A program made the translations under genes and the position numbers. A stretch of 64,000 bases of DNA, taken from the sequence record PP400784. One strand, 5' to 3'. Each line of letters starts with the position of its first letter. The first letter of the stretch is position 1. The notes under the pieces were generated by a model. The model saw only the letters and a list, made by a program, of their open reading frames with translations, did not search any database and had not been told where the DNA came from. This stretch comes from Escherichia phage FL38. Positions 600-62,535 of the stretch are shown piece by piece.

Positions 600-1078
600 G
601 CTAAATCATTGCAATATTTTAGTGCCTTAGTTTGAAATTCTGCGCTGTTAAGTTCTTCATAACGGTCATAATCACCGTTTAATGCTGCCTTTCTTGCTTC
701 TTGCTCTATCTGCATGTCAGACATGATAATACAGCGATCCCGCGCTTTCATCTTCTCAAGTTGTATAGACTCTTCTTTCTGCTTGCGCAATTCTTCTTGA
801 CGCTTCTTTTCTTCTTGTGCTTTCTCTTCCCGCGCTTCTTTGATTGCATCCTTGAACATCTGCGTTTGTGGTGCTAAGCCAACTTTAACGCGATCCACGT
901 CTCGACGTTCCATTTTAGAAATAAAGCATGATTCAATCTGATCATCACTTGCATATGCTGCTTTACATTCACGAAGCAAGAAAACCGGATCTGATTTAGC
1001 ATTCATCATAGCTTCCATGTTGGCACAACCAGTAAGCATGAATGCAGCCGCAAGACCAATCAGTTTAATCATTTTCAT
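593..1078 (-). CDS. Predicted lipoprotein with charged coiled-coil region
   Basis: N-terminal signal peptide with lipobox LTGC (MKMIKLIGLAAAFMLTGC); K/E-rich helical segment. Confidence 0.6.
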   Translation of the reverse strand: MKMIKLIGLAAAFMLTGCANMEAMMNAKSDPVFLLRECKAAYASDDQIESCFISKMERRDVDRVKVGLAPQTQMFKDAIKEAREEKAQEEKKRQEELRKQKEESIQLEKMKARDRCIIMSDMQIEQEARKAALNGDYDRYEELNSAEFQTKALKYCNDLAK

Positions 1079-1899
1079 TTAGTCACCTCACCGAAAATTG
1101 TAAATTGTCTACGATTCTCATCGCCGAAAGATTCTACTACGTCGTTTACCTTGACGCAAGTCCCGCGCGGTAAAATTACTTCACATTCGCAAGGATTCCA
1201 TGCAATGGACCCAACAACAAAACCTTTATGATCTTTTACGTCAATTACCCATGATACATTACAAGAATGTTGCATCTTTCCGGTCATTGATTCATATCGA
1301 TTCTCACAATAAAGGCTAGTGCTGTTTGATAGCCATCCTCCAAAGATGATCGGTGTCATGCTGGTAGATACAAAGTTTTTAAAGGTAAACTCCTTATCTT
1401 CAATGATACGCTCTATTGTCTGAATGTCAAGATGTTGACCGCGATAAAGAGTACCGTTTAACTTTTCGGTTTTATCCATGACACAATCCATCAAATCAAC
1501 AATCTCTGATATCTCATCGGTCATGTCTTCTTCCCCTAAGAGAGCACCATTTACCCATTCGTATTGCTCAGACACATAATCACAGATTGCATTATATTCT
1601 GCTGGTGTTATGTTGTTATGTTTGTAATGTTTGAATACATTATCTCCAAAGTCTTCGGAGTGTACTTCATACATCACATTAATGATTTTCTTGACAAATC
1701 CATAATCTTGTGTCTCACGCTCAAGGAAGCGGATAACCTTCACATAATCATCAAAGTTAATCTGATCGCTGATCATCTCAGTGATCATGTAGCCATTAAT
1801 CCCCTCAATGTCATATGTTTCGATGTAATTATCCATACGTTCCATCATTGATTCGCGTGATTCTTCCGAAAGACGAAAATCCTGTAATTTCTTGAACAT
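1075..1899 (-). CDS. Alt-like ADP-ribosyltransferase paralog
   Basis: R-S-E ART motifs (LYRGQ, FVSTSM, CECEVILPRG) closely parallel the C-terminal domain of the adjacent Alt ORF. Confidence 0.7.
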   Translation of the reverse strand: MFKKLQDFRLSEESRESMMERMDNYIETYDIEGINGYMITEMISDQINFDDYVKVIRFLERETQDYGFVKKIINVMYEVHSEDFGDNVFKHYKHNNITPAEYNAICDYVSEQYEWVNGALLGEEDMTDEISEIVDLMDCVMDKTEKLNGTLYRGQHLDIQTIERIIEDKEFTFKNFVSTSMTPIIFGGWLSNSTSLYCENRYESMTGKMQHSCNVSWVIDVKDHKGFVVGSIAWNPCECEVILPRGTCVKVNDVVESFGDENRRQFTIFGEVTK

Positions 1900-1977: not shown

Positions 1978-4029
1978 TTACATTTTAAATTTATCTGGCA
2001 TTGCGTCTACAGATACCAGATCAGCGATAAGCTGACGTAGAGTTGCCTTATCTGCTTTCTTACGTTCGGTTTTAGCTTCGCTAATGAAGCTGGAGAAAGA
2101 CAGGTCAGAAGCAGGTTTAACAACACCTTCACGGATGAATGCATCACCGTCCGCGATCATCTCGCCAGATTCTTGCAATGCTGCCAGTTCATTTTTGTTC
2201 ATAATATGTGCCTCAATGTAATAAGTTTCTTGTGAATCCGTCGATGCCGTAGCACGAGTTACCGTATCAAAGGATAACACAACACCGCGAGGAAGTAAAA
2301 TCTCGCATTCTTTGTAAGCAAATGCTTTGTTACCTACTGGCAAGACAGGGATGTTTTCCGCGCCAGCAATGGAGAAAGCAACATTAGCGCCACCTTCACC
2401 GCGAGAGCCAGCCATAGAATCAACACCAGCAACGGCACTAGCCACGTTTGCATTCCAGCCGCCAAAAATGTTAGGTGCAAGGGAAGTGCTCACATAGTTT
2501 TTAAAGTAAAACGCTTTTTGCTTACGTGCAGTTTCCCACATTTGCGACCGGAAGTCCATACCACGATACAGAATAGTACCCGGATCAAGTTTAACGCCAT
2601 AGTTGGAGAAGGCATTATCCAGTGCATCGCACATCTTGACCAATTCTTCTGGATCTGAGATGCCTTCAAACTCTTCCAGCTTACGGTCGGTTAGGAAGTT
2701 GTTCATATTGATGTATGCTGCATCGGCATATTCGCTCAACACAAAACCTTCCGCGCCTGGCAGATCAAGATCAATATCTGCCATCATTTCACCCATGTTG
2801 CTAGCAATTGCTTCAAACATACCGGAAGCAACATTACGTAGGGCATCGGTTTTGATCTGGGTGATATGACTACGCAGCATTTCAGCTTTTACATCTGCTG
2901 GCATAGACTGGTCTACTCGATCCATTGCCAGGGCGGTGATCTTGTTTTCGAATACTTCCTCGCTCATGATTTCTTTTAAGCGTTTGATTGATGCTGCGAT
3001 AACTTCCGCAGACAACGGATCATATTGATCCTGAACTTTTACCAGTTCGCTTACTGCGTATTTTGCATCGGCTTCGCTTTCAAAAATAGTACGCATGAAA
3101 CCATAGCGAGTGATAATATCACTTGTCCATTCATTCAGAGAACGGGCGGTTGAACGTTCTAAGGCTTGACGATCAATCAGAGTATTAAACTGTTTCTTAG
3201 GTTCGGCTTCGGTGATATCTTCTTCCGGTTTAAGATTAATTTTTTCTGGATGATTCACATAGTCGCTGTTATAGGTCGCTTGAGTTTTCAGCATTTCTTC
3301 TTTAGTCAAACGAGATTTAGCCGCTACGCGTTGTTCTGCTTCCGCGTTTCGTTCTTCTTCTGACACAAGACTGGCCGCATATGCCTCATCTTTAGTCAGA
3401 GATTCACCAGTAGCCTTAGATACCCAGCGATCACCTAAATCACTTTCTACTTTAGTGAACAAGGATTCATCAAGTTTAATCCCTTTAATCTTATCAATCG
3501 CCATCCCGCGACGCTTGACAACAACTAAAGCGATCTTTTTGCTGGTCATTACTTCCTGCTGGAATACTTCAAACTTCGGTGTACGACGCACCAAACGCTC
3601 TATAACGCGCTTAACCAGTTCGGTCTTACCTTTCATGCGGGATACGTTAAAACGGAACATAACAGCGTCTAATTGCGCTTTACGGGCTGTTTCCATAACC
3701 ACATCAAAAGCACTTGACATAACTGCAATCGGGTTATCGCCTAGACCATTTTTAAGCTGTACAATACGACCGCTTTTGTTCATTTCGCACAGTACAACAT
3801 GTGCGGTCTTGTCACCCATACGAATGATTTTAGGTGTTTTGTTGGTGAAGTTACAAAGACGGACAATCACATCTTTATCGCGTGTCTGTACTGCAAAAAG
3901 CTGTTTAGGATTCTGCTTAGGCTTTAAGCACTGTACCGGAGCAATACTGCCAAAGTTTTCTTCCTCTTCCGTCAACAGCCATTTCTCGAAAGATTCAATC
4001 ATTAGATCGTCGATTTCTAAGTTAAACAT
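1978..4029 (-). CDS. alt: Alt, packaged ADP-ribosyltransferase acting on host RNA polymerase
   Basis: 683 aa (T4 Alt 682 aa); ART motifs YRGMDF / YVSTSL / ECEILLPRG; position between gp54 and DNA ligase region. Confidence 0.85.
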   Translation of the reverse strand: MFNLEIDDLMIESFEKWLLTEEEENFGSIAPVQCLKPKQNPKQLFAVQTRDKDVIVRLCNFTNKTPKIIRMGDKTAHVVLCEMNKSGRIVQLKNGLGDNPIAVMSSAFDVVMETARKAQLDAVMFRFNVSRMKGKTELVKRVIERLVRRTPKFEVFQQEVMTSKKIALVVVKRRGMAIDKIKGIKLDESLFTKVESDLGDRWVSKATGESLTKDEAYAASLVSEEERNAEAEQRVAAKSRLTKEEMLKTQATYNSDYVNHPEKINLKPEEDITEAEPKKQFNTLIDRQALERSTARSLNEWTSDIITRYGFMRTIFESEADAKYAVSELVKVQDQYDPLSAEVIAASIKRLKEIMSEEVFENKITALAMDRVDQSMPADVKAEMLRSHITQIKTDALRNVASGMFEAIASNMGEMMADIDLDLPGAEGFVLSEYADAAYINMNNFLTDRKLEEFEGISDPEELVKMCDALDNAFSNYGVKLDPGTILYRGMDFRSQMWETARKQKAFYFKNYVSTSLAPNIFGGWNANVASAVAGVDSMAGSRGEGGANVAFSIAGAENIPVLPVGNKAFAYKECEILLPRGVVLSFDTVTRATASTDSQETYYIEAHIMNKNELAALQESGEMIADGDAFIREGVVKPASDLSFSSFISEAKTERKKADKATLRQLIADLVSVDAMPDKFKM

Positions 4030-12382: not shown

Positions 12383-12859
12383 TTATTTTTCTTGATGCTC
12401 GCGCTCGTACTTTTCGAAATAAAATTCTACTGGCTGGTCATGAATTGACAGCAAGCCAAAGCGTTTAGCCGCTCGCAATCCCATATTGCGCTGAATGTAC
12501 TTCTGGAAGTTCTCGCGTATACACTTACGCCAGTATTCTAAGCCCATACAGCTTTTATAAAGGTTGCATTGCACACACGCCGGATTCATGTTATCAAGTA
12601 TATCATGTTCCGGTTTATGCATTCCTACAACCTTATACTTCCACGATCCATCATCATTACGGGCAATTCGTCCATTTTCATCATAGACTACCTTTGATCG
12701 TCGCAATACTGGTTTGATATGGTCTGCGTGCCAGCGATCCCCTAGTTCCTCGCCACAATAGGCACAACGTCCACCGTATTTCATTTTCAGGATCTGGCGT
12801 TGCTCTTTCTTTGACAATTTTTTAGGTTTAGGGGCTTTCGCCCCTTCATTATCACACAT
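12383..12859 (-). CDS. HNH endonuclease (158 aa)
   Basis: CAYCGEEL ... WHADHIKP ... NPACVQCN: HNH/zinc-finger signature; overlaps ligase stop by 8 nt. Confidence 0.7.
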   Translation of the reverse strand: MCDNEGAKAPKPKKLSKKEQRQILKMKYGGRCAYCGEELGDRWHADHIKPVLRRSKVVYDENGRIARNDDGSWKYKVVGMHKPEHDILDNMNPACVQCNLYKSCMGLEYWRKCIRENFQKYIQRNMGLRAAKRFGLLSIHDQPVEFYFEKYEREHQEK

Positions 12860-14354
12860 CGAATACCTCTTTTACTGTATTTGCAGTGGTCTTGTCGTAG
12901 CGAATACGTTTGATGATTGGGAGAAATAAAGAGAACTCCGGTTCATCTTCTTTACGTGATTTGCTGCGGATATACCCGTTGCATGTCATCTCAATAACTT
13001 TTCCAATCAGGTTATGACGGTCAGCCCATAACATTTCTCGGTCGAGTTCATTTCGACGATCGAACGGAATTACACGTTCAGTACCATCATCACCTTTTTC
13101 GGTTGTAGTGTCGGTTAATCCCGATCCGGTGTTAGTCATCATTCGTCCGCACGCACTACGGACAGTAAAACCGCCTACCTTATTGGGGTCTTTACTATGC
13201 GGATATACATCAACAATTTCCGCGTCGAAGTCAATCACTTCTTTAAATTTAACCTGATCTTTACTACGGCGATCTTCAAATACACCATGTAAATTTTTAA
13301 GGATAATACCTTCTAAGCCCATGTTGACATAACGATGATATACTTCGCGAGCTTCATCGATATTGTTAACTACAGTGTTTTCGATGATCTGAACACGAGG
13401 ATCGTTAAGTTCTTCAACAATCTGTTTTAGTTCTTCGAATCGATCTTTATATTGCTTCGTTGCTTTCTCGTTTCCGTAATACACATCACGGTCGATAACA
13501 TCCCAGACAGTGTAAACAATACATTGGGCTTCTTCTTTTGGAATAGTTCCTTTAAGTGATTTGTTGAGGATACCATTTCCGGTCTGACGATCTGCAACAA
13601 CGGATTCTTTCACTGCTTCCGCTACTGGCGTTAATGGCATTTCCTCTTCTTCAAATATCCATGACAGAGTACCATCATAAACGCTTTCAACGAAGTTCTG
13701 CGCTGGTGTTTGCGAAAGGGTAGGCATATATACCAATTCGCCATCTAGAACAATTCCACGGCCTCGTAGACGCTCTAAAACCGCAAACAAATCATCAAGC
13801 CCTTGATAGGTATTACCTGAGCGGGTATAGATTGCTAATGTTTCCCCGTCAATATCAGCCATACCACGAGCGCCATCGCTTTTAAGTTGTGCATACGCCG
13901 GATACTTGATATTAGCAATAGTCTTATCAGAACATGACGATGCAAGGTGGCACGGCTGCTGGGGGATCAGTTTCTTCCATACCTTGTTTGCAGTGGTAGC
14001 GGAACAACCACATTCCAGGTCACGATTCAGGACCATCATTGCAACTTTAGCATCATCCTCTGACAAGCAAGTCAGAGTATCGGTAACTAGCTGTAATGCT
14101 GCATTACCAGTTACTTGACGAGTGGCAAGTTTATTTTTAAAGACCTGTAATGCACCGGATAAAGACAATACAGACGAATAACGCGATGGTTTATCGTATT
14201 TCTTTACGCCAAACGTAACCTGTTTGCAATATGCCAGATAAAAGCATTCTTTCAGCGTTTCATTGCTCGCGGATTCTTTCAGAATCTTTTCTTTCAGCGA
14301 TGTTTTGTCTGTTGCTGCAAGCTGATTAATGATATTAAGAATTGACATTTTCAC
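12852..14354 (-). CDS. 30: ATP-dependent DNA ligase
   Basis: 500 aa; adenylation motif YAQLKSDGARG (KxDG), EGIILKN, GIANKSLKGTI closely parallel T4 gp30. Confidence 0.92.
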   Translation of the reverse strand: MKMSILNIINQLAATDKTSLKEKILKESASNETLKECFYLAYCKQVTFGVKKYDKPSRYSSVLSLSGALQVFKNKLATRQVTGNAALQLVTDTLTCLSEDDAKVAMMVLNRDLECGCSATTANKVWKKLIPQQPCHLASSCSDKTIANIKYPAYAQLKSDGARGMADIDGETLAIYTRSGNTYQGLDDLFAVLERLRGRGIVLDGELVYMPTLSQTPAQNFVESVYDGTLSWIFEEEEMPLTPVAEAVKESVVADRQTGNGILNKSLKGTIPKEEAQCIVYTVWDVIDRDVYYGNEKATKQYKDRFEELKQIVEELNDPRVQIIENTVVNNIDEAREVYHRYVNMGLEGIILKNLHGVFEDRRSKDQVKFKEVIDFDAEIVDVYPHSKDPNKVGGFTVRSACGRMMTNTGSGLTDTTTEKGDDGTERVIPFDRRNELDREMLWADRHNLIGKVIEMTCNGYIRSKSRKEDEPEFSLFLPIIKRIRYDKTTANTVKEVFDV

Positions 14355-14814
14355 CTCGTTTTGTTAAACGTTCACGAATATCATTGAGGATACTACAAAA
14401 TTCCGATTCAGTCAATATAGTCTTTAACGGATCAGTTCCACCTATGCTATGACGTAATTTCTTATTTCCGGTAGAGAGTAATGCTTTACAAAATTCTGGG
14501 TTATTCCGTGCCATCGTAACAAATGCCAGATGTACCAGTCTGTAATAATGCTCACTCATTCGATGAATCGGGCGACCCTGAAAATATAACATGTGATTCT
14601 CAATCTTTTCAGTTCTTCCGGTTCTTTTTGCTTTGCCACCGTGCATCAAAAAGATTTCTCTTTGTCTCTGAGGGTTCTTAAATCTTAGCCCCTGTAAAAA
14701 TCCTTCTGTGCTGTTAATATCGCAACCAAATAGACGGAATGGTCTTTTATTGAAATTACTCAATTCACCCGATGGATAAGGTCCACCCGCATAGATATCA
14801 ATTTCAGAAGTCAT
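14335..14814 (-). CDS. NADAR-like (YbiA/DUF1768) protein, putative ADP-ribose-processing enzyme
   Basis: IDIYAGGPY..GELSNF, EGFLQGLRF, AKRTGR, ALLSTGNKKLRHSIGGTDP resemble NADAR conserved blocks. Confidence 0.55.
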   Translation of the reverse strand: MTSEIDIYAGGPYPSGELSNFNKRPFRLFGCDINSTEGFLQGLRFKNPQRQREIFLMHGGKAKRTGRTEKIENHMLYFQGRPIHRMSEHYYRLVHLAFVTMARNNPEFCKALLSTGNKKLRHSIGGTDPLKTILTESEFCSILNDIRERLTKRGENVNS

Positions 14815-15019
14815 TGAAACTAATCTCGCTAATCAGAGAGAACGGATCATAATCGTCATTAGGAATATCGATAGTAATCGAATGAGGGTTTACCCATACA
14901 CCAAACTGGTCTTCTTCGGTGAATACTTCGGTATGGATTTCGTGGATGTTTACATTCATAGTTTTCATAATAAAATTTCCTTAATAATCAATAACTTACA
15001 AAATCATATAGCCAAAATA

Positions 15020-15042
15020 TAGGCGGGATTATTTCCCGCCGT
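15020..15042 (-). terminator. Rho-independent terminator downstream of gene 31
   Basis: GGCGGGA-ttatt-TCCCGCC hairpin followed by U-rich tract on minus strand. Confidence 0.65.
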
Positions 15043-15051
15043 TTAAAATCA

Positions 15052-15375
15052 TTAACCGTAAACTACCACAATATTCTGTTTGTGCGTTACAGTCCATTTC
15101 AGGTCGATCTCTTCTTCCTTCTTAACGCCGTTAATAACGTCTGGATGAGGAACTTTATTCATCTTGCCATGTGGCAGTAAAACAGTTTTACCCAGCAATT
15201 CTTTATCTACCGTTTCACCGATATCAATAATCTTACCTACCAGCGGAATCTCGCCCATAGTGCGCTTTTGCTCAATAATGATCCCCATAGAGCTTTTTAC
15301 TTCTGTCCCTGCGCTTTCTGCTTTAGCTTCAATAATCACATAGTCACCAAGTGCTTTAGGAGTTTTAACGGTCAT
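15052..15375 (-). CDS. 31: Co-chaperonin gp31 (GroES analogue)
   Basis: 107 aa; GDYVII, mobile-loop-like region, LPHGK, VPHP parallel T4 gp31; T4 position. Confidence 0.75.
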   Translation of the reverse strand: MTVKTPKALGDYVIIEAKAESAGTEVKSSMGIIIEQKRTMGEIPLVGKIIDIGETVDKELLGKTVLLPHGKMNKVPHPDVINGVKKEEEIDLKWTVTHKQNIVVVYG

Positions 15376-15416
15376 AATTTTATTACCTCTTCAAATCAAT
15401 ACAGTTTAATGATGAA

Positions 15417-15737
15417 TTATTTATAAATTTCGACGATCTGCGCTGGAGTCAGCCCGTCTACATTAATCAGACTATCAAGCCCAAAACTACGGAAACCTTC
15501 AACTGCAATTTCATATACTGGCAAAGATGTTTCTGATTCTTTACGCGGTTTTTCAACATTAGGAACTAACCACTTTTCGTATGTTTCGAAAGGCATCAGT
15601 GCCGGATCTCGCGTGGCGATCATCTCACGGACAGTACCATCTTTCTTAGTAAACTGCAAAGAGTGAGTACCGACCGAAAACATTTTCTTTAGTGCTTCAC
15701 GAAGTGCGATATTATCAACTTGTTCAGTCATTATCAA
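15417..15737 (-). CDS. Hypothetical protein (106 aa)
   Basis: ORF between gene 31 and cd (T4 31.x position). Confidence 0.5.
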   Translation of the reverse strand: MIMTEQVDNIALREALKKMFSVGTHSLQFTKKDGTVREMIATRDPALMPFETYEKWLVPNVEKPRKESETSLPVYEIAVEGFRSFGLDSLINVDGLTPAQIVEIYK

Positions 15738-16230
15738 TACCCTTCAAATCAGTCAATAATGCTTTTGGAATACGCGTGATTGTAATATCTGCATTATTCA
15801 GAATATCAGCCCAATCACGCCCACCATTTCGATCATATGTGTCGCAATAGTATAGATGTTTAATACCACTGTTTGCAATTGCTTTAGCGCAATCTGGACA
15901 CGGTGAAGCAGTACACCACATACTAGCGCCTTCAATCGATACACCGCTACGGGCAGCAAACAAAATAGCATTTAATTCAGCATGGATCTCGTTTTTCTGT
16001 GACCATGCACTATGCTCTGGTCGTTTTTCTGGGATCATTTTGCCGTCATCATCCAGCCAACCGTTTTTATGTGCATGACAGCTACAATTTACTTGCCCTG
16101 CTGGAGTTCCGTTAAATCCAGTAGAAATGATTCGCCCGTCTTTTTCGATCAGTGCGCCTACCTTCCACGAAACGCATTTAGAGTTCTTTGCGATTAGATA
16201 GGCGATCTGCATGTAAGTTTGTGACAACAT
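15724..16230 (-). CDS. cd: dCMP deaminase
   Basis: Zinc-binding cytidine/dCMP deaminase motifs HAELNAI and PCPDCAKAI; N-terminus parallels T4 Cd. Confidence 0.9.
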   Translation of the reverse strand: MLSQTYMQIAYLIAKNSKCVSWKVGALIEKDGRIISTGFNGTPAGQVNCSCHAHKNGWLDDDGKMIPEKRPEHSAWSQKNEIHAELNAILFAARSGVSIEGASMWCTASPCPDCAKAIANSGIKHLYYCDTYDRNGGRDWADILNNADITITRIPKALLTDLKGIDND

Positions 16231-16251
16231 AATATAATCCTCACATAGTAA

Positions 16252-16455
16252 TTAACCGTATACGCGAAAGTATTCTACTGATCCGTCGCTATACTGTTTT
16301 ACATTGAATGTATTCACACCATGATTATTTCTCATGATGACATATACACTGCGACGTTCATCGCTAAACGGCATAACTGGCGCTGGTTCAATATCAACAC
16401 TAAAACCACGTTTAGCAAGTGCTTCGCCTAATTGCTTGAGTTTATCGGTAAACAT
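16252..16455 (-). CDS. Hypothetical protein (67 aa)
   Basis: ORF between cd and pseT. Confidence 0.45.
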   Translation of the reverse strand: MFTDKLKQLGEALAKRGFSVDIEPAPVMPFSDERRSVYVIMRNNHGVNTFNVKQYSDGSVEYFRVYG

Positions 16456-17333
16456 TAAAAGTCTCCGTAGTTAACCTGAAAACATTCTACACCAATTGAG
16501 CGGTACATGTCAACCACTTGATCACGGTCATCTACCGCCAACACAACATGATAACGCGGTGCAATTTCAGAGAAGAAGATCTCTTTCTTCACTTCATGAT
16601 CAGGACGACGATCATTAGTTTCACGTTGAAAGTGATCACTAGGTTCAATACCCTGTTCACGCAGCCATTGCAGAGTATCTTCTTCGCAAACATCCTCACG
16701 CCCTGAGCATGTAATGATACGATAACCATTATCACGATACAGTTTAAGCATTTCGATCACTTGCGGACGCGGTTTATCTTCTTTGACCTTTGTCCAGTCA
16801 AACGGATGACGACCGCCCTTATCCGCTAATGTTCCATCAATATCAAAGATCACTGCCTTCGGCAGCATGGTATTCGGTTTGTATACTTCTTGACCCATAT
16901 ATTCCTGCATCAGATAAAATTGGTTGCGCAAATTAGAAAGTGGAATTGCTTTCTCTCCGCGATAGAAATTACGTTTCTTTAGTGTCTCAAATGATTCATT
17001 GAACACTTGTTCAGTATACACCGCGTTAAATTCTTTTGCAAGTTCTTTGTAGAATACACGATGTTTTTCTTTCAGGTTGGTATCGGAGATAATGATACTC
17101 AATCCGCGTGATAGAGTCTCACGAGCAATCATTCTCTGAATAGACTCTACCAGCTTTTCTTTTTCCTTAGTATACTTGTATTTCAAATGTGAGTCAACAC
17201 CAAACAACATAAGACGAAGATCATCACGATTCACATTACGATAATTACTAAACCGTTTACATGTTTCCATCGCCCATGTAGTTTTACCGGACCCAGAACA
17301 ACCAACGGTTAAAATCACTTCACATTTCGGCAT
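16455..17333 (-). CDS. pseT: Polynucleotide 5'-kinase/3'-phosphatase
   Basis: P-loop GCSGSGKTTWA and HAD phosphatase motif VIFDIDGTL; start trimmed to MPKCEVILTVG aligning with T4 Pnk N-terminus. Confidence 0.9.
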   Translation of the reverse strand: MPKCEVILTVGCSGSGKTTWAMETCKRFSNYRNVNRDDLRLMLFGVDSHLKYKYTKEKEKLVESIQRMIARETLSRGLSIIISDTNLKEKHRVFYKELAKEFNAVYTEQVFNESFETLKKRNFYRGEKAIPLSNLRNQFYLMQEYMGQEVYKPNTMLPKAVIFDIDGTLADKGGRHPFDWTKVKEDKPRPQVIEMLKLYRDNGYRIITCSGREDVCEEDTLQWLREQGIEPSDHFQRETNDRRPDHEVKKEIFFSEIAPRYHVVLAVDDRDQVVDMYRSIGVECFQVNYGDF

Positions 17334-17785
17334 TATTTCTCCTTCGGTTTGCACCGTTCCTCATTAAGTTCTTTTCGATAATAACACATGATCAACTTAC
17401 TTTCAAGTGTATATCTCTTAATATCCGCAAGCCAGACTCTGAATTTTTGGGAGTCCTCCCACGACATAGAAACTCTAGGTTTACCGTCTATTGTATCCAC
17501 TTTCAGGTCAATGTCAACTTTTTCTATTGGTGCTGGTAGTGGAGGATGTAATTTCGGTTCCTGTGAATAATGGTCCATTGTACACGAAGAAAGCGCAAAT
17601 ACAATAGGCAAAGCGAAGACATGGATTATGGAGGTCTGAAAATTCTTATGTGCTTTCTTAAACATCCAGTGTATCACGAAAATTGAAAACACCATCAGGA
17701 TAATAATGCTTGCACCTATCCACAGATAATCAACCAGATTAAAATTGCTTATCTGCTCTTGTGTAGGCAATATTTCTATGCTCAT
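17333..17785 (-). CDS. Predicted membrane protein (150 aa)
   Basis: Hydrophobic segments WIGASIIILMVFSIFVIHWMF and IIHVFALPIVFAL. Confidence 0.5.
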   Translation of the reverse strand: MSIEILPTQEQISNFNLVDYLWIGASIIILMVFSIFVIHWMFKKAHKNFQTSIIHVFALPIVFALSSCTMDHYSQEPKLHPPLPAPIEKVDIDLKVDTIDGKPRVSMSWEDSQKFRVWLADIKRYTLESKLIMCYYRKELNEERCKPKEK

Positions 17786-18108
17786 TTAGTAGCCTCCTTT
17801 AATTCTTCGGTAAACTCCTTAAATGAGTCATTAAGCTGTTTCTCTACCAACTTGGGTTTTTGTGCTACTACATAGCCTCGTGTAGCGTCTTTCATTGCTT
17901 TGTTTTGTTCTTCCGCAAACTTAGTTCTTATTCCATACATCTCCTTTTGTAGTGAGTCTACGACCTTCATCTTTTCATCGGTCTTTTTCTTATACTCTGT
18001 AAATTCCTGATTCAGTCGATCTACCTCCTTTTTATTTTCCCACCACATATTGCCACCTACCCCCAGCAACACAGATATGATAACAATGTATATCAGCTTT
18101 GACATATT
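17782..18108 (-). CDS. Predicted single-pass membrane protein with coiled coil (about 108 aa)
   Basis: TM segment LIYIVIISVLLGVGG; ORF-track start trimmed because the terminator hairpin lies in the extension. Confidence 0.5.
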   Translation of the reverse strand, partial: NMSKLIYIVIISVLLGVGGNMWWENKKEVDRLNQEFTEYKKKTDEKMKVVDSLQKEMYGIRTKFAEEQNKAMKDATRGYVVAQKPKLVEKQLNDSFKEFTEELKEATK

Positions 18109-18123
18109 ACCCCCAACGACAAA

Positions 18124-18145
18124 AGGCGGGGAACTAGCCCCGCTT
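18124..18145 (-). terminator. Rho-independent terminator after rnlA
   Basis: GCGGGG-aactag-CCCCGC hairpin with U-tract on minus strand. Confidence 0.65.
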
Positions 18146-18149
18146 ATTA

Positions 18150-19319
18150 TTACCAATCAATCTTATCAGCCGGAATAAGTTTCTTATAATTCCGTAGATA
18201 GTAAGTTTTCATTGAATCCAGAATACGGTCATAATCAAGACCATCAAATGCAATCATCAGACACATGAAAATATATGCTTGTGCATCACCATGTTTACGT
18301 GATTCGATAGTCGCATTGGATGCATATGTCTTTCTGTCTTCTCCTGCGTGTGCGTTATAAAATTCTGTTGCTGTCGTGAAGGCATTGCGAAGAATAGACC
18401 TGAATGCTTCCTCGAATAGCTCGATTCGTTCCAGTGCTTCCGGTTCGCCTTCATATGCAGCACGCAAATCATCGGTTTCGCTTTCTACGACATAGTAGAT
18501 CAGGTTATTAGGAAACATCGATGTGTTTTTAATGTTATGCACACCAATATACCATTCACTCTTCACTTTGAACATTTGACCGTCTTTAGTGCGTGCAACA
18601 ATTCCTTCGATACCTTCTGCGGTCCGAACTTCATCAAGAATATTGCTAAAACGCGCTGAATCAACCTGTAACGCATTTACCAGATGAGGACGTAGGATTG
18701 CGTCAGCAAATAGCATTTGATGCGGTACGTACTCTCCTGTGACGTTATGGCGTACATTCAGAAGTGTTAGCGACGGTTCAGAATATTCTACAACAATTCG
18801 GTTGCTGGGCGCTGTATATTCAAAGTTGAAAGTATAATCAGACCCAATATCAGCAATCTTAGCGCGTAGATCCGCATACTTCTCTGAATACAGAAGACCG
18901 TTTGCTCTCTCTGCCTGGCTTGAGTACAAGGCCGCTTTAGACTTCAACTGAACATAGCCGTTATCAATGTATGTGCTTACTAGACTACCGTCCATTTTGT
19001 CCATGACCATTTCCACATCTTCCGGCTTAAAGCGAGCGCGATCATTCTCACCCAAATTAAAAAACTTCTCCATAGGACGAGATGCGATGCGGACCGGACG
19101 ACCTTTATCGTCAATTTCAAACATGATCCCGCGACACTCTAACGCATCTGGTTTATTCCACATTTCCGGTTTGCTCAAGTACAGATAGCTAAAAATGCGC
19201 ATACGGGTTTGCATCGCCGTAATTTCATCTTTGTAATAGAACGTATCAGATCCGTCACATAGTGCCATCAGATTTTTGAACAATGCTAAAACTTTTTTGT
19301 TGTTTTCTTTTGTTAACAT
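18150..19319 (-). CDS. rnlA: RNA ligase 1
   Basis: RIFSYLYLS, PDALECRGIMFE, PVRIASRPMEKFFNL, ligase motif I KMDGSLV parallel T4 Rnl1; true start may be the ATG at about 19268, which removes the overlap with denA. Confidence 0.9.
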   Translation of the reverse strand: MLTKENNKKVLALFKNLMALCDGSDTFYYKDEITAMQTRMRIFSYLYLSKPEMWNKPDALECRGIMFEIDDKGRPVRIASRPMEKFFNLGENDRARFKPEDVEMVMDKMDGSLVSTYIDNGYVQLKSKAALYSSQAERANGLLYSEKYADLRAKIADIGSDYTFNFEYTAPSNRIVVEYSEPSLTLLNVRHNVTGEYVPHQMLFADAILRPHLVNALQVDSARFSNILDEVRTAEGIEGIVARTKDGQMFKVKSEWYIGVHNIKNTSMFPNNLIYYVVESETDDLRAAYEGEPEALERIELFEEAFRSILRNAFTTATEFYNAHAGEDRKTYASNATIESRKHGDAQAYIFMCLMIAFDGLDYDRILDSMKTYYLRNYKKLIPADKIDW

Positions 19320-62031: not shown

Positions 62032-62535
62032 TTAAATTAAAGAAAATTTGTAAATCTCTATCCGATCGCCATTACACGCGTAAACTTCCTCGATCTCATC
62101 AAGGATCATGGTCGTCCCTGTCTTGTATATGCACTCGCGCTCATCTGCCAACATAGCATACAAAGACAGTCGAGTAGTCGGATTGTCATACTCTTTAGAC
62201 ACCACTCGGTCAATAGCATGTTCGTAATAATTCATGCAAGGCTTGGTAGGTTTTATTGCAATAATCTTTCCTGTTGCATAAACATCGGTCGCAAAGTCCT
62301 CTGCTGTTGATTGCAGTGGCGTAAAGCTCATAGGACGCTCTACAACGAAAGAATCGCCTACAATTAAGGTATCCAGCTTACGACCTTCTCTTTTGCTCAC
62401 ACCGCGATACAAGGCTTCATGATGCACTAACCGCTCAGTCTTTTCGATCAATCCATTAAGGATCGACATATCGATATTTTCTTTAGAGTTCATCACTTCA
62501 TCAATGATGTTAAGTTCTTCTGGTGTAAATTGCAT
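62032..62535 (-). CDS. Possible Mod-like ADP-ribosyltransferase (167 aa)
   Basis: Candidate R-S-E triad: EALYRGV, MSFTP, ADERECI; T4 position of modA/modB. Confidence 0.35.
   Translation of the reverse strand: MQFTPEELNIIDEVMNSKENIDMSILNGLIEKTERLVHHEALYRGVSKREGRKLDTLIVGDSFVVERPMSFTPLQSTAEDFATDVYATGKIIAIKPTKPCMNYYEHAIDRVVSKEYDNPTTRLSLYAMLADERECIYKTGTTMILDEIEEVYACNGDRIEIYKFSLI

Follow-up and report, generated by a model that had tools for sequence, protein, structure and literature searches.

The window, a 64,000 bp stretch of Escherichia phage FL38, carries on its minus strand a genuine gene that is orthologous to and syntenic with gene 30.3 of phage T4, the product of which was renamed AdfN, for anti-DarT factor NADAR, by Johannesman et al. 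(Nat Commun 2025, PMC11825919). The encoded protein has the NADAR fold, with the Glu and the His of phage NADARs in its active site and an Arg at a third position, where most of the family has Lys. By analogy with T4 AdfN, it is likely that this Krischvirus protein is a single-domain NADAR N-glycosidase which removes the ADP-ribose that DarT1 attaches to guanine. Its enzymatic activity and its anti-DarTG1 phenotype are what we infer for it from the T4 orthologue, and this counter-defence role is already known, both in kind and in family assignment. The gene is referred to here as 30.3.

14335..14814, minus strand: 30.3 orthologue (AdfN-type phage NADAR), 159 aa, ATG start

The 30.3 gene and its neighbourhood

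The host genome is that of a Krischvirus (RB49/Phi1/JSE-type T4-like coliphage), and the 3-kb stretch at 30.3 was found to be 98–99% identical in about 59 genomes. The gene itself showed 98–100% conservation across these ~59 Krischvirus records, while homologues of it were present in 1509 phage records and fell into 967 clusters at 50% identity. When 30.3 was compared with its counterpart in L010, a metagenomic relative whose protein is 68% identical, a dN/dS of ~0.12 was obtained, with synonymous sites near saturation. It is a genuine gene under purifying selection and no chance ORF, and the NADAR-like ORF placed here by the preliminary description, which was made from the letters alone, was borne out at its full 159 aa on the minus strand. 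A 52-aa plus-strand ORF lying within 30.3 (14523..14681) was set aside as a shadow ORF.

In Phi1, the counterpart is annotated as "30.3, gp30.3 conserved hypothetical protein", and gp30 DNA ligase comes next. Most Krischvirus records still list 30.3 as "hypothetical protein", and in one of them a "tail fibers protein" label was seen within the 3-kb stretch around the gene.

The gene order on the minus strand is pseT, cd.2, cd, 31.1, 31, ORF215, 30.3, 30 (ligase) and an HNH endonuclease ORF. This part of the genome, encoded throughout on that strand, is the one for replication and nucleotide metabolism. The features adjoining 30.3 are as follows.

12852..14348, minus strand: gene 30, ATP-dependent DNA ligase (Pfam DNA_ligase_A_M, E=2.8e-22; Phi1 gp30)
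14335..14348, minus strand: 14 nt shared by the 3' end of 30.3 and the 5' end of gene 30 (from the sequence and the Phi1 gp30 annotation)
14804..14968, minus strand: 54-aa ORF upstream of 30.3 (Phi1 ORF215; phrog_15277, E=3.7e-42)
15022..15040, minus strand: terminator-like hairpin between gene 31 and the ORF215-30.3-30 string (consensus scan only)

As in T4, the locus lies between genes 31 and 30, with 31 on its upstream side. In T4, however, 30.2 and 30.1 stand between 30.3 and 30, whereas in Krischvirus 30.3 runs straight into gene 30. The overlap at the ligase start, which had also been noticed beforehand, proved to be 14 nt long, since the ATG annotated as the start of Phi1 gp30 corresponds to window position 14348 and has a GAGG Shine-Dalgarno sequence 5 nt upstream, within the 30.3 coding sequence. 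An alternative GTG start at 14354, given by the ORF finder, would make the overlap 20 nt, and this GTG sits in the Shine-Dalgarno region. At the other end, ORF215 overlaps the start of 30.3 by 11 nt, and both overlaps are kept in L010. The ligase gene is probably translationally coupled to 30.3.

The stem of the hairpin after gene 31 is 7 bp long, 6 of its pairs being GC, and is followed by a T-rich tail; the regional count of such sites was no higher than the shuffled expectation. A promoter scan from this hairpin to ORF215 revealed no convincing promoter, the total of promoter-like sites being within the shuffle expectation.

Family, fold and active site of the 30.3 protein

The 159-aa protein matched the Pfam family Phage_30_3 (PF08010) over profile positions 2–138 of 138 (E=6.5e-38, 130.1 bits vs a cut-off of 36). 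T4 gp30.3 shares this Pfam family, and the two proteins aligned end to end with 38% identity (E=8e-30). The score of the window protein against Pfam NADAR (PF08719) was 15.6 bits (E=0.02), where the cut-off is 35.1 bits. In the same test, T4 AdfN matched Phage_30_3 with E=2e-70 and gave no NADAR match even at E=0.1; thus, the sub-threshold score points to the limits of the PF08719 model, by which the phage subfamily is not covered. Membership in NCBIfam NF053876 ("NADAR family anti-phage protein") was rejected, with 14.3 bits vs a cut-off of 240.

Searching the PDB with a profile built from 65 family members retrieved E. coli YbiA (E=5e-4) and the Phytophthora NADAR (E=0.34). The AlphaFold2 model of the window protein (pLDDT 91.7) showed the YbiA/NADAR fold, with a helical core and flanking small beta-hairpins, and it matched solved NADARs only, with E. 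coli YbiA as the joint-best structural match. Of the NADAR matches proposed as a check, by profile or by structure, the one to PF08719 was narrowly missed, as it also is by T4 AdfN, and the structural one was found. At the sequence level, the conserved NADAR blocks named in the preliminary description are partly borne out, with a strong Phage_30_3 match and a PF08719 score below the cut-off. The window protein is a member of the NADAR superfamily, of which the literature recognises four families, and within it belongs to that of gp30.3, known as "phage NADAR" (PMC11125620, PMC12945103). The hallmark of phage NADARs is a His, where YbiA-type proteins have Glu and DarT-associated ones have Asp (PMC11543638, PMC11125620, PMC12945103).

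The active-site positions were read from a family alignment of 271 sequences, which contained the window protein, T4 gp30.3 and database homologues, and whose near-invariant blocks include LSNF, EGFLQ and TILTE-EF.

14704..14706, minus strand: E37 codon, distal-ribose ligand (= T4 AdfN E36, PnNADAR E43, E. coli C7 DarG1 E88)
14683..14685, minus strand: R44 codon, at the conserved phosphate-binding Lys position (T4 K43, PnNADAR K50, C7 DarG1 K95)
14449..14451, minus strand: H122 codon, the His marking phage NADARs
14338..14409, minus strand: C-terminal helix (residues ~136-157) and short tail (AlphaFold2 model)

E37, in the motif EGFLQ, is Glu in 270 of the 271 sequences and aligned with the Glu of YbiA and of 8bau in profile alignments. 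H122, in the motif LRHSIGG of the last strand, is His in all but two (269/271). In T4 AdfN, the E36A mutant was impaired and K43A was only partly active (PMC11825919). The C-terminal helix of the window protein (136-157) is intact and confidently predicted, with no truncation, and the C-terminus is 7 aa longer than that of T4 AdfN; the DNA segment encoding this helix also holds the ribosome-binding site and the start codon of the ligase. When the equivalent helix is lost, through the RB69 frameshift or through engineered truncation, AdfN activity is reduced (PMC11825919). With its minimal core-only NADAR fold, catalytic Glu, diagnostic His and intact C-terminal helix, the window protein is like T4 AdfN, from which it differs in having Arg44 in place of K43.

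At column 44, Lys was found in 257 of the 271 sequences and Arg in 9, the latter including the window protein, its 98% cluster and the 68% relative. Arg was also found at this column in several lineages that are at most 44% identical to the window protein. Judging from the alignment, Arg44 is a recurrent natural variant, and the change is a conservative one. In the structure of the Phytophthora NADAR, the corresponding Lys (K50) touches adenine and pyrophosphate. The engineered K95R change in E. coli C7 DarG1 kept G-ADPr hydrolysis in vitro and lost the rescue from DarT1 (PMC11543638), and it is mainly for this reason that our confidence in an anti-DarTG1 effect in vivo is lower than our confidence in the family membership.

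Proposed function and related NADARs

The proposed mechanism is modelled on the T4 orthologue and on NADAR structures. Infection would activate the host DarT1 toxin, which would ADP-ribosylate the N2 amino group of guanine in the phage DNA and block its replication. The phage enzyme would then hold the ADP-ribose in its conserved pocket, with E37 and H122 flanking the distal ribose and R44 replacing the usual Lys at the pyrophosphate, and would hydrolyse the bond between ribose and guanine. Unmodified DNA would be restored in this way, and the phage could replicate in E. coli carrying DarTG1. The enzyme would thus act as an orphan antitoxin homologue, with neither an attached DarT nor the N-terminal extension of DarG1.

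Much is known of the T4 protein, an orphan DarG1-like ADP-ribosylglycohydrolase. T4 gp30.3 hydrolyses G-ADPr in vitro (PMC11125620, PMC12945103), removing guanine-linked ADP-ribose from DNA and sparing the thymine-linked form (PMC11125620). T4 and T2 need AdfN to resist DarTG1, and its deletion abolishes this resistance; supplying it is enough to rescue RB69, in which a frameshift has deprived the native allele of the C-terminal helix (PMC11825919). It does not bind DarT1 and does not counter DarTG2, which modifies thymine (PMC11825919). In a T4 transposon screen, adfN was conditionally essential on DarTG1 hosts (bioRxiv 10.1101/2025.11.20.689424). The T4 protein is fully effective only during Tevenvirinae infection, where it perhaps needs some T-even factor (PMC11825919), and published phylogenies put gp30.3 proteins closest to DarG1 and not to YbiA (PMC11825919).

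The earlier suggestion that a phage eraser counters a DarTG-like host defence gains support from T4 AdfN, which does so, and, as it equals the reported function of this orthologue, the hypothesis is already published. As for the reversal of DarT-type modification in general, the guanine part (DarT1) would stand for the window protein, and the thymine part would not, given that T4 AdfN has no effect on DarTG2. Several points count against the anti-DarTG1 role, namely the identity to T4 AdfN of only 38%, the Arg in place of Lys, the sub-threshold PF08719 score and the placement of Krischvirus outside Tevenvirinae, by which it differs from T4 (taxonomy line of the Phi1 record). No publication turned up in a literature search combining DarTG with Krischvirus.

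No homologue of AdfA (T4 gp61.2) was detected by tblastn at E<1 in the window and three Phi1 segments, which together cover ~121 kb outside the Phi1 late-gene segment 62000-104781. Phi1 ORF021, which is syntenic with the AdfA gene, was considered and found to be unrelated to AdfA. We regard it as quite unlikely that the Lys-to-Arg change, fixed in Krischvirus, marks a functionally shifted AdfN, that is, one with another substrate range (RNA G-ADPr or the product of another guanine-targeting defence ART) or one that, with no AdfA homologue detected, serves as the sole anti-DarT1 factor of the phage and works without a T-even cofactor.

Among the other NADARs, DarG1 (from E. coli C7, and from G. 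lovleyi in PDB 8bat) has a DarT1 gene alongside, while the window protein is an orphan: the genes around 30.3 are ORF215, the ligase gene, gene 31 and the HNH endonuclease ORF, with no adjacent DarT. DarG1 also carries an N-terminal extension, with 219 aa in 8bat vs the 159-aa core domain here (PMC11825919, PMC12945103), and a catalytic Asp where the window protein has His. DarG1 is a self-protecting antitoxin, whereas 30.3 belongs to a lytic phage and would serve in counter-defence. YbiA (PDB 2b3w) and the Phytophthora NADAR (PDB 8bau) are ~21% identical to the window protein. The defining Glu of YbiA is a His here, and YbiA, an enzyme of riboflavin metabolism, gave no rescue from DarT1 toxicity (PMC11125620). 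AdfN-Bas32 and AdfN-Bas60, of T5-like phages and Vequintavirinae, are phage orphan NADARs countering DarTG1 (PMC11825919), as the window protein would be. They belong, however, to other NADAR clades, were independently acquired and are active without phage infection, whereas the window protein falls in the T4-type clade.

ADP-ribosyltransferases of the window and alternative roles of 30.3

Alt, an Alt-like paralogue and a possible Mod-like enzyme had been named in the preliminary description, and profile matches confirmed all three.

1978..4029, minus strand: alt (ADP-ribosyltransferase), 683 aa (Pfam ADPrib_exo_Tox, E=1.2e-9; Phi1 alt)
1075..1899, minus strand: Alt-like ART paralogue, 274 aa (ADPrib_exo_Tox, E=4.3e-16; phrog_15144 and phrog_802, "Alt-like")
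62032..62535, minus strand: ModB-like ART, 167 aa (phrog_832, E=7e-21; Phi1 modB)

The ModB-like protein had no match in Pfam and was 33% identical to T4 ModB (BLASTP E=7e-11). The presence of three ART genes in the window, all on one strand that they share with 30.3, would fit an enzyme that erases or tunes the ADP-ribosylation made by the phage's own Alt, Alt-like and ModB proteins, as had also been suggested. This suggestion found no support, as dozens of genes separate 30.3 from alt, ~10 kb away, and from modB, at a distance of ~47 kb. The activity reported for NADARs concerns only base-linked ADP-ribose in nucleic acids, and none of the cited NADAR literature reports activity on ADP-ribosylated proteins, while the T4 record annotates ModA and ModB as modifiers of RNA polymerase and other proteins. 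Moreover, DarT1 entirely accounts for the adfN phenotype of T4 (PMC11825919). Because of the distance of the ART genes and the base-linked nature of NADAR substrates on nucleic acids, we give this role a low weight and consider it very unlikely. A housekeeping N-glycosidase of the YbiA type, with intermediates of the riboflavin pathway or other nucleotide-like metabolites as its substrates, appears just as improbable, even with E. coli YbiA as the best sequence-profile match and joint-best structural match, and with 30.3 placed among the nucleotide-metabolism genes cd, pseT, nrdAB, td and frd. The Glu that defines that subfamily is replaced by His (PMC11543638), and the nearest relatives of gp30.3 proteins in the published phylogenies are DarG1 proteins (PMC11825919).

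It also seems unlikely, though less so, that the protein is an active NADAR hydrolase whose main substrate is something other than DarT1-modified DNA, such as G-ADPr RNA, the product of some other guanine-targeting host ART or a soluble immune signal derived from ADP-ribose. According to PMC12945103, which cites earlier work, RNA is a further in-vitro substrate from which the phage NADAR of T4 strips G-ADPr, and the K-to-R change at the position numbered 44 here harmed the rescue from DarT1 by DarG1 in vivo (PMC11543638). On Bacteroidales chromosomes, a His-type domain is fused to a deoxyribonucleotidase and lies beside a gene of the uridine-kinase family, a hint that some family members may work on substrates at the nucleotide level. 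On the other hand, Arg at the Lys position still permits G-ADPr hydrolysis in vitro (PMC11543638), the sole in-vivo phenotype known for the gp30.3 family is the counter-defence against DarTG1, strong in T4 and T2 (PMC11825919), and no soluble substrate has been demonstrated for any gp30.3-type protein. Decay of 30.3 into a non-functional remnant, for which the frameshifted and inactive allele of RB69 (PMC11825919) offers a precedent and the substituted catalytic-site Lys a possible sign, is extremely improbable. The protein is full-length with its C-terminal helix intact, the dN/dS was 0.12 against the 68% relative that likewise has Arg, and the same residue is seen again in several unrelated branches of the family.

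Under the favoured reading, that of a DarT1-countering guanine ADP-ribose hydrolase orthologous to T4 AdfN, the Krischvirus gene could be renamed as an AdfN-type NADAR and predicted anti-DarTG1 factor, a change that carries little weight beyond annotation. As the engineered K-to-R change in DarG1 split in-vitro activity from in-vivo protection, this natural R-type AdfN, set against an R44K revertant, would make a handy probe of the role of the Lys position in vivo.

Arginine 44 and the surroundings of the 30.3 gene

We examined the codon for R44 in the 30.3 protein, the phage NADAR of AdfN type, which lies at window positions 14683-14685 and encodes a natural arginine where NADARs otherwise keep the active-site lysine. 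Arginine at this column was found to be fixed in Krischvirus and appears again in a few unrelated lineages of the family. In DarG1, the engineered equivalent of R44, K95R, parted in-vitro activity from in-vivo rescue (PMC11543638).

The gene itself (14335-14814) is labelled 'hypothetical protein' in most Krischvirus records, and in some records small genes of the same 3-kb stretch are named 'tail fibers protein' or 'WYL domain containing protein', labels which look like automated mis-annotations. Beside the ligase gene, whose 3′ end it overlaps by 8 nt, we identified an HNH ORF which is probably an insertion of the homing-endonuclease type:

12383-12859, minus strand, HNH endonuclease ORF, 158 aa (Pfam HNH, 5e-6)

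ADP-ribosyltransferases in the window

Two other genes of the window are relevant to ADP-ribosylation:

1075-1899, minus strand, stand-alone ADP-ribosyltransferase, 274 aa (Pfam ADPrib_exo_Tox; PHROG 15144)
62032-62535, minus strand, ModB-like protein, 167 aa

The first, located immediately downstream of alt, has a PHROG of its own (15144) and matched ADPrib_exo_Tox better than Alt did (4.3e-16 versus 1.2e-9). The ModB-like protein, on the other hand, is only 167 aa long compared with 207 aa for T4 ModB, to which just 113 residues could be aligned, and it had no match in Pfam. The window carries only one mod gene, between gene 56 and srd, whereas T4 has both modA and modB there.

The His-type NADAR domain outside phages

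Searching with the family profile revealed that the His-type 'phage' NADAR domain is also present outside phages. Most of the best 120 matches listed are proteins of about 322 aa, in which an N-terminal Phage_30_3 domain is fused to a C-terminal NT5C 5′(3′)-deoxyribonucleotidase domain, and several of the carriers among these matches are named Muribaculaceae or Prevotellaceae by NCBI:

L006:6001-6969, and also L007-L009, Phage_30_3-NT5C fusion; proteins P0009-P0122

On a 596-kb contig, one fusion gene is directly preceded by a gene of the PRK/uridine-kinase family and followed by one for a PBP transpeptidase, and the vicinity contains no phage genes. The NT5C fusion and these neighbours hint that part of the Phage_30_3 family may act at the level of nucleotides.

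DNA modification and possible other anti-DarT factors in Krischvirus

In the Krischvirus phage Phi1, the annotated order at 14639-18649 (L004) is uvsX, a small ORF and gene 43; in T4, the genes between uvsX and 43 are beta-gt, 42 and imm. The annotation of the Phi1 segments examined lists neither gene 42 (dCMP hydroxymethylase) nor a complete gene for a glucosyltransferase, and the cytosine in the DNA of RB49-type phages is unmodified. Unmodified T4 DNA is also a substrate on which AdfN-T4 works (PMC11825919).

Two further Phi1 genes concern the other anti-DarT factors:

L004:5172-5807, ORF021, 211 aa, just past the window end at the site of T4 61.2 (AdfA)
L005:33740-34195, tk.4 orthologue by the Phi1 annotation, outside the window

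No similarity to T4 61.2 was detectable in ORF021, and some 121 kb of Krischvirus genome (the window and three Phi1 segments) yielded no match to AdfA. T4 Tk.4 was recently proposed to be AdfM, a macrodomain anti-DarTG2 factor (bioRxiv 10.1101/2025.11.20.689424), and with its orthologue annotated in Phi1, Krischvirus may therefore possess erasers for both DarT types.
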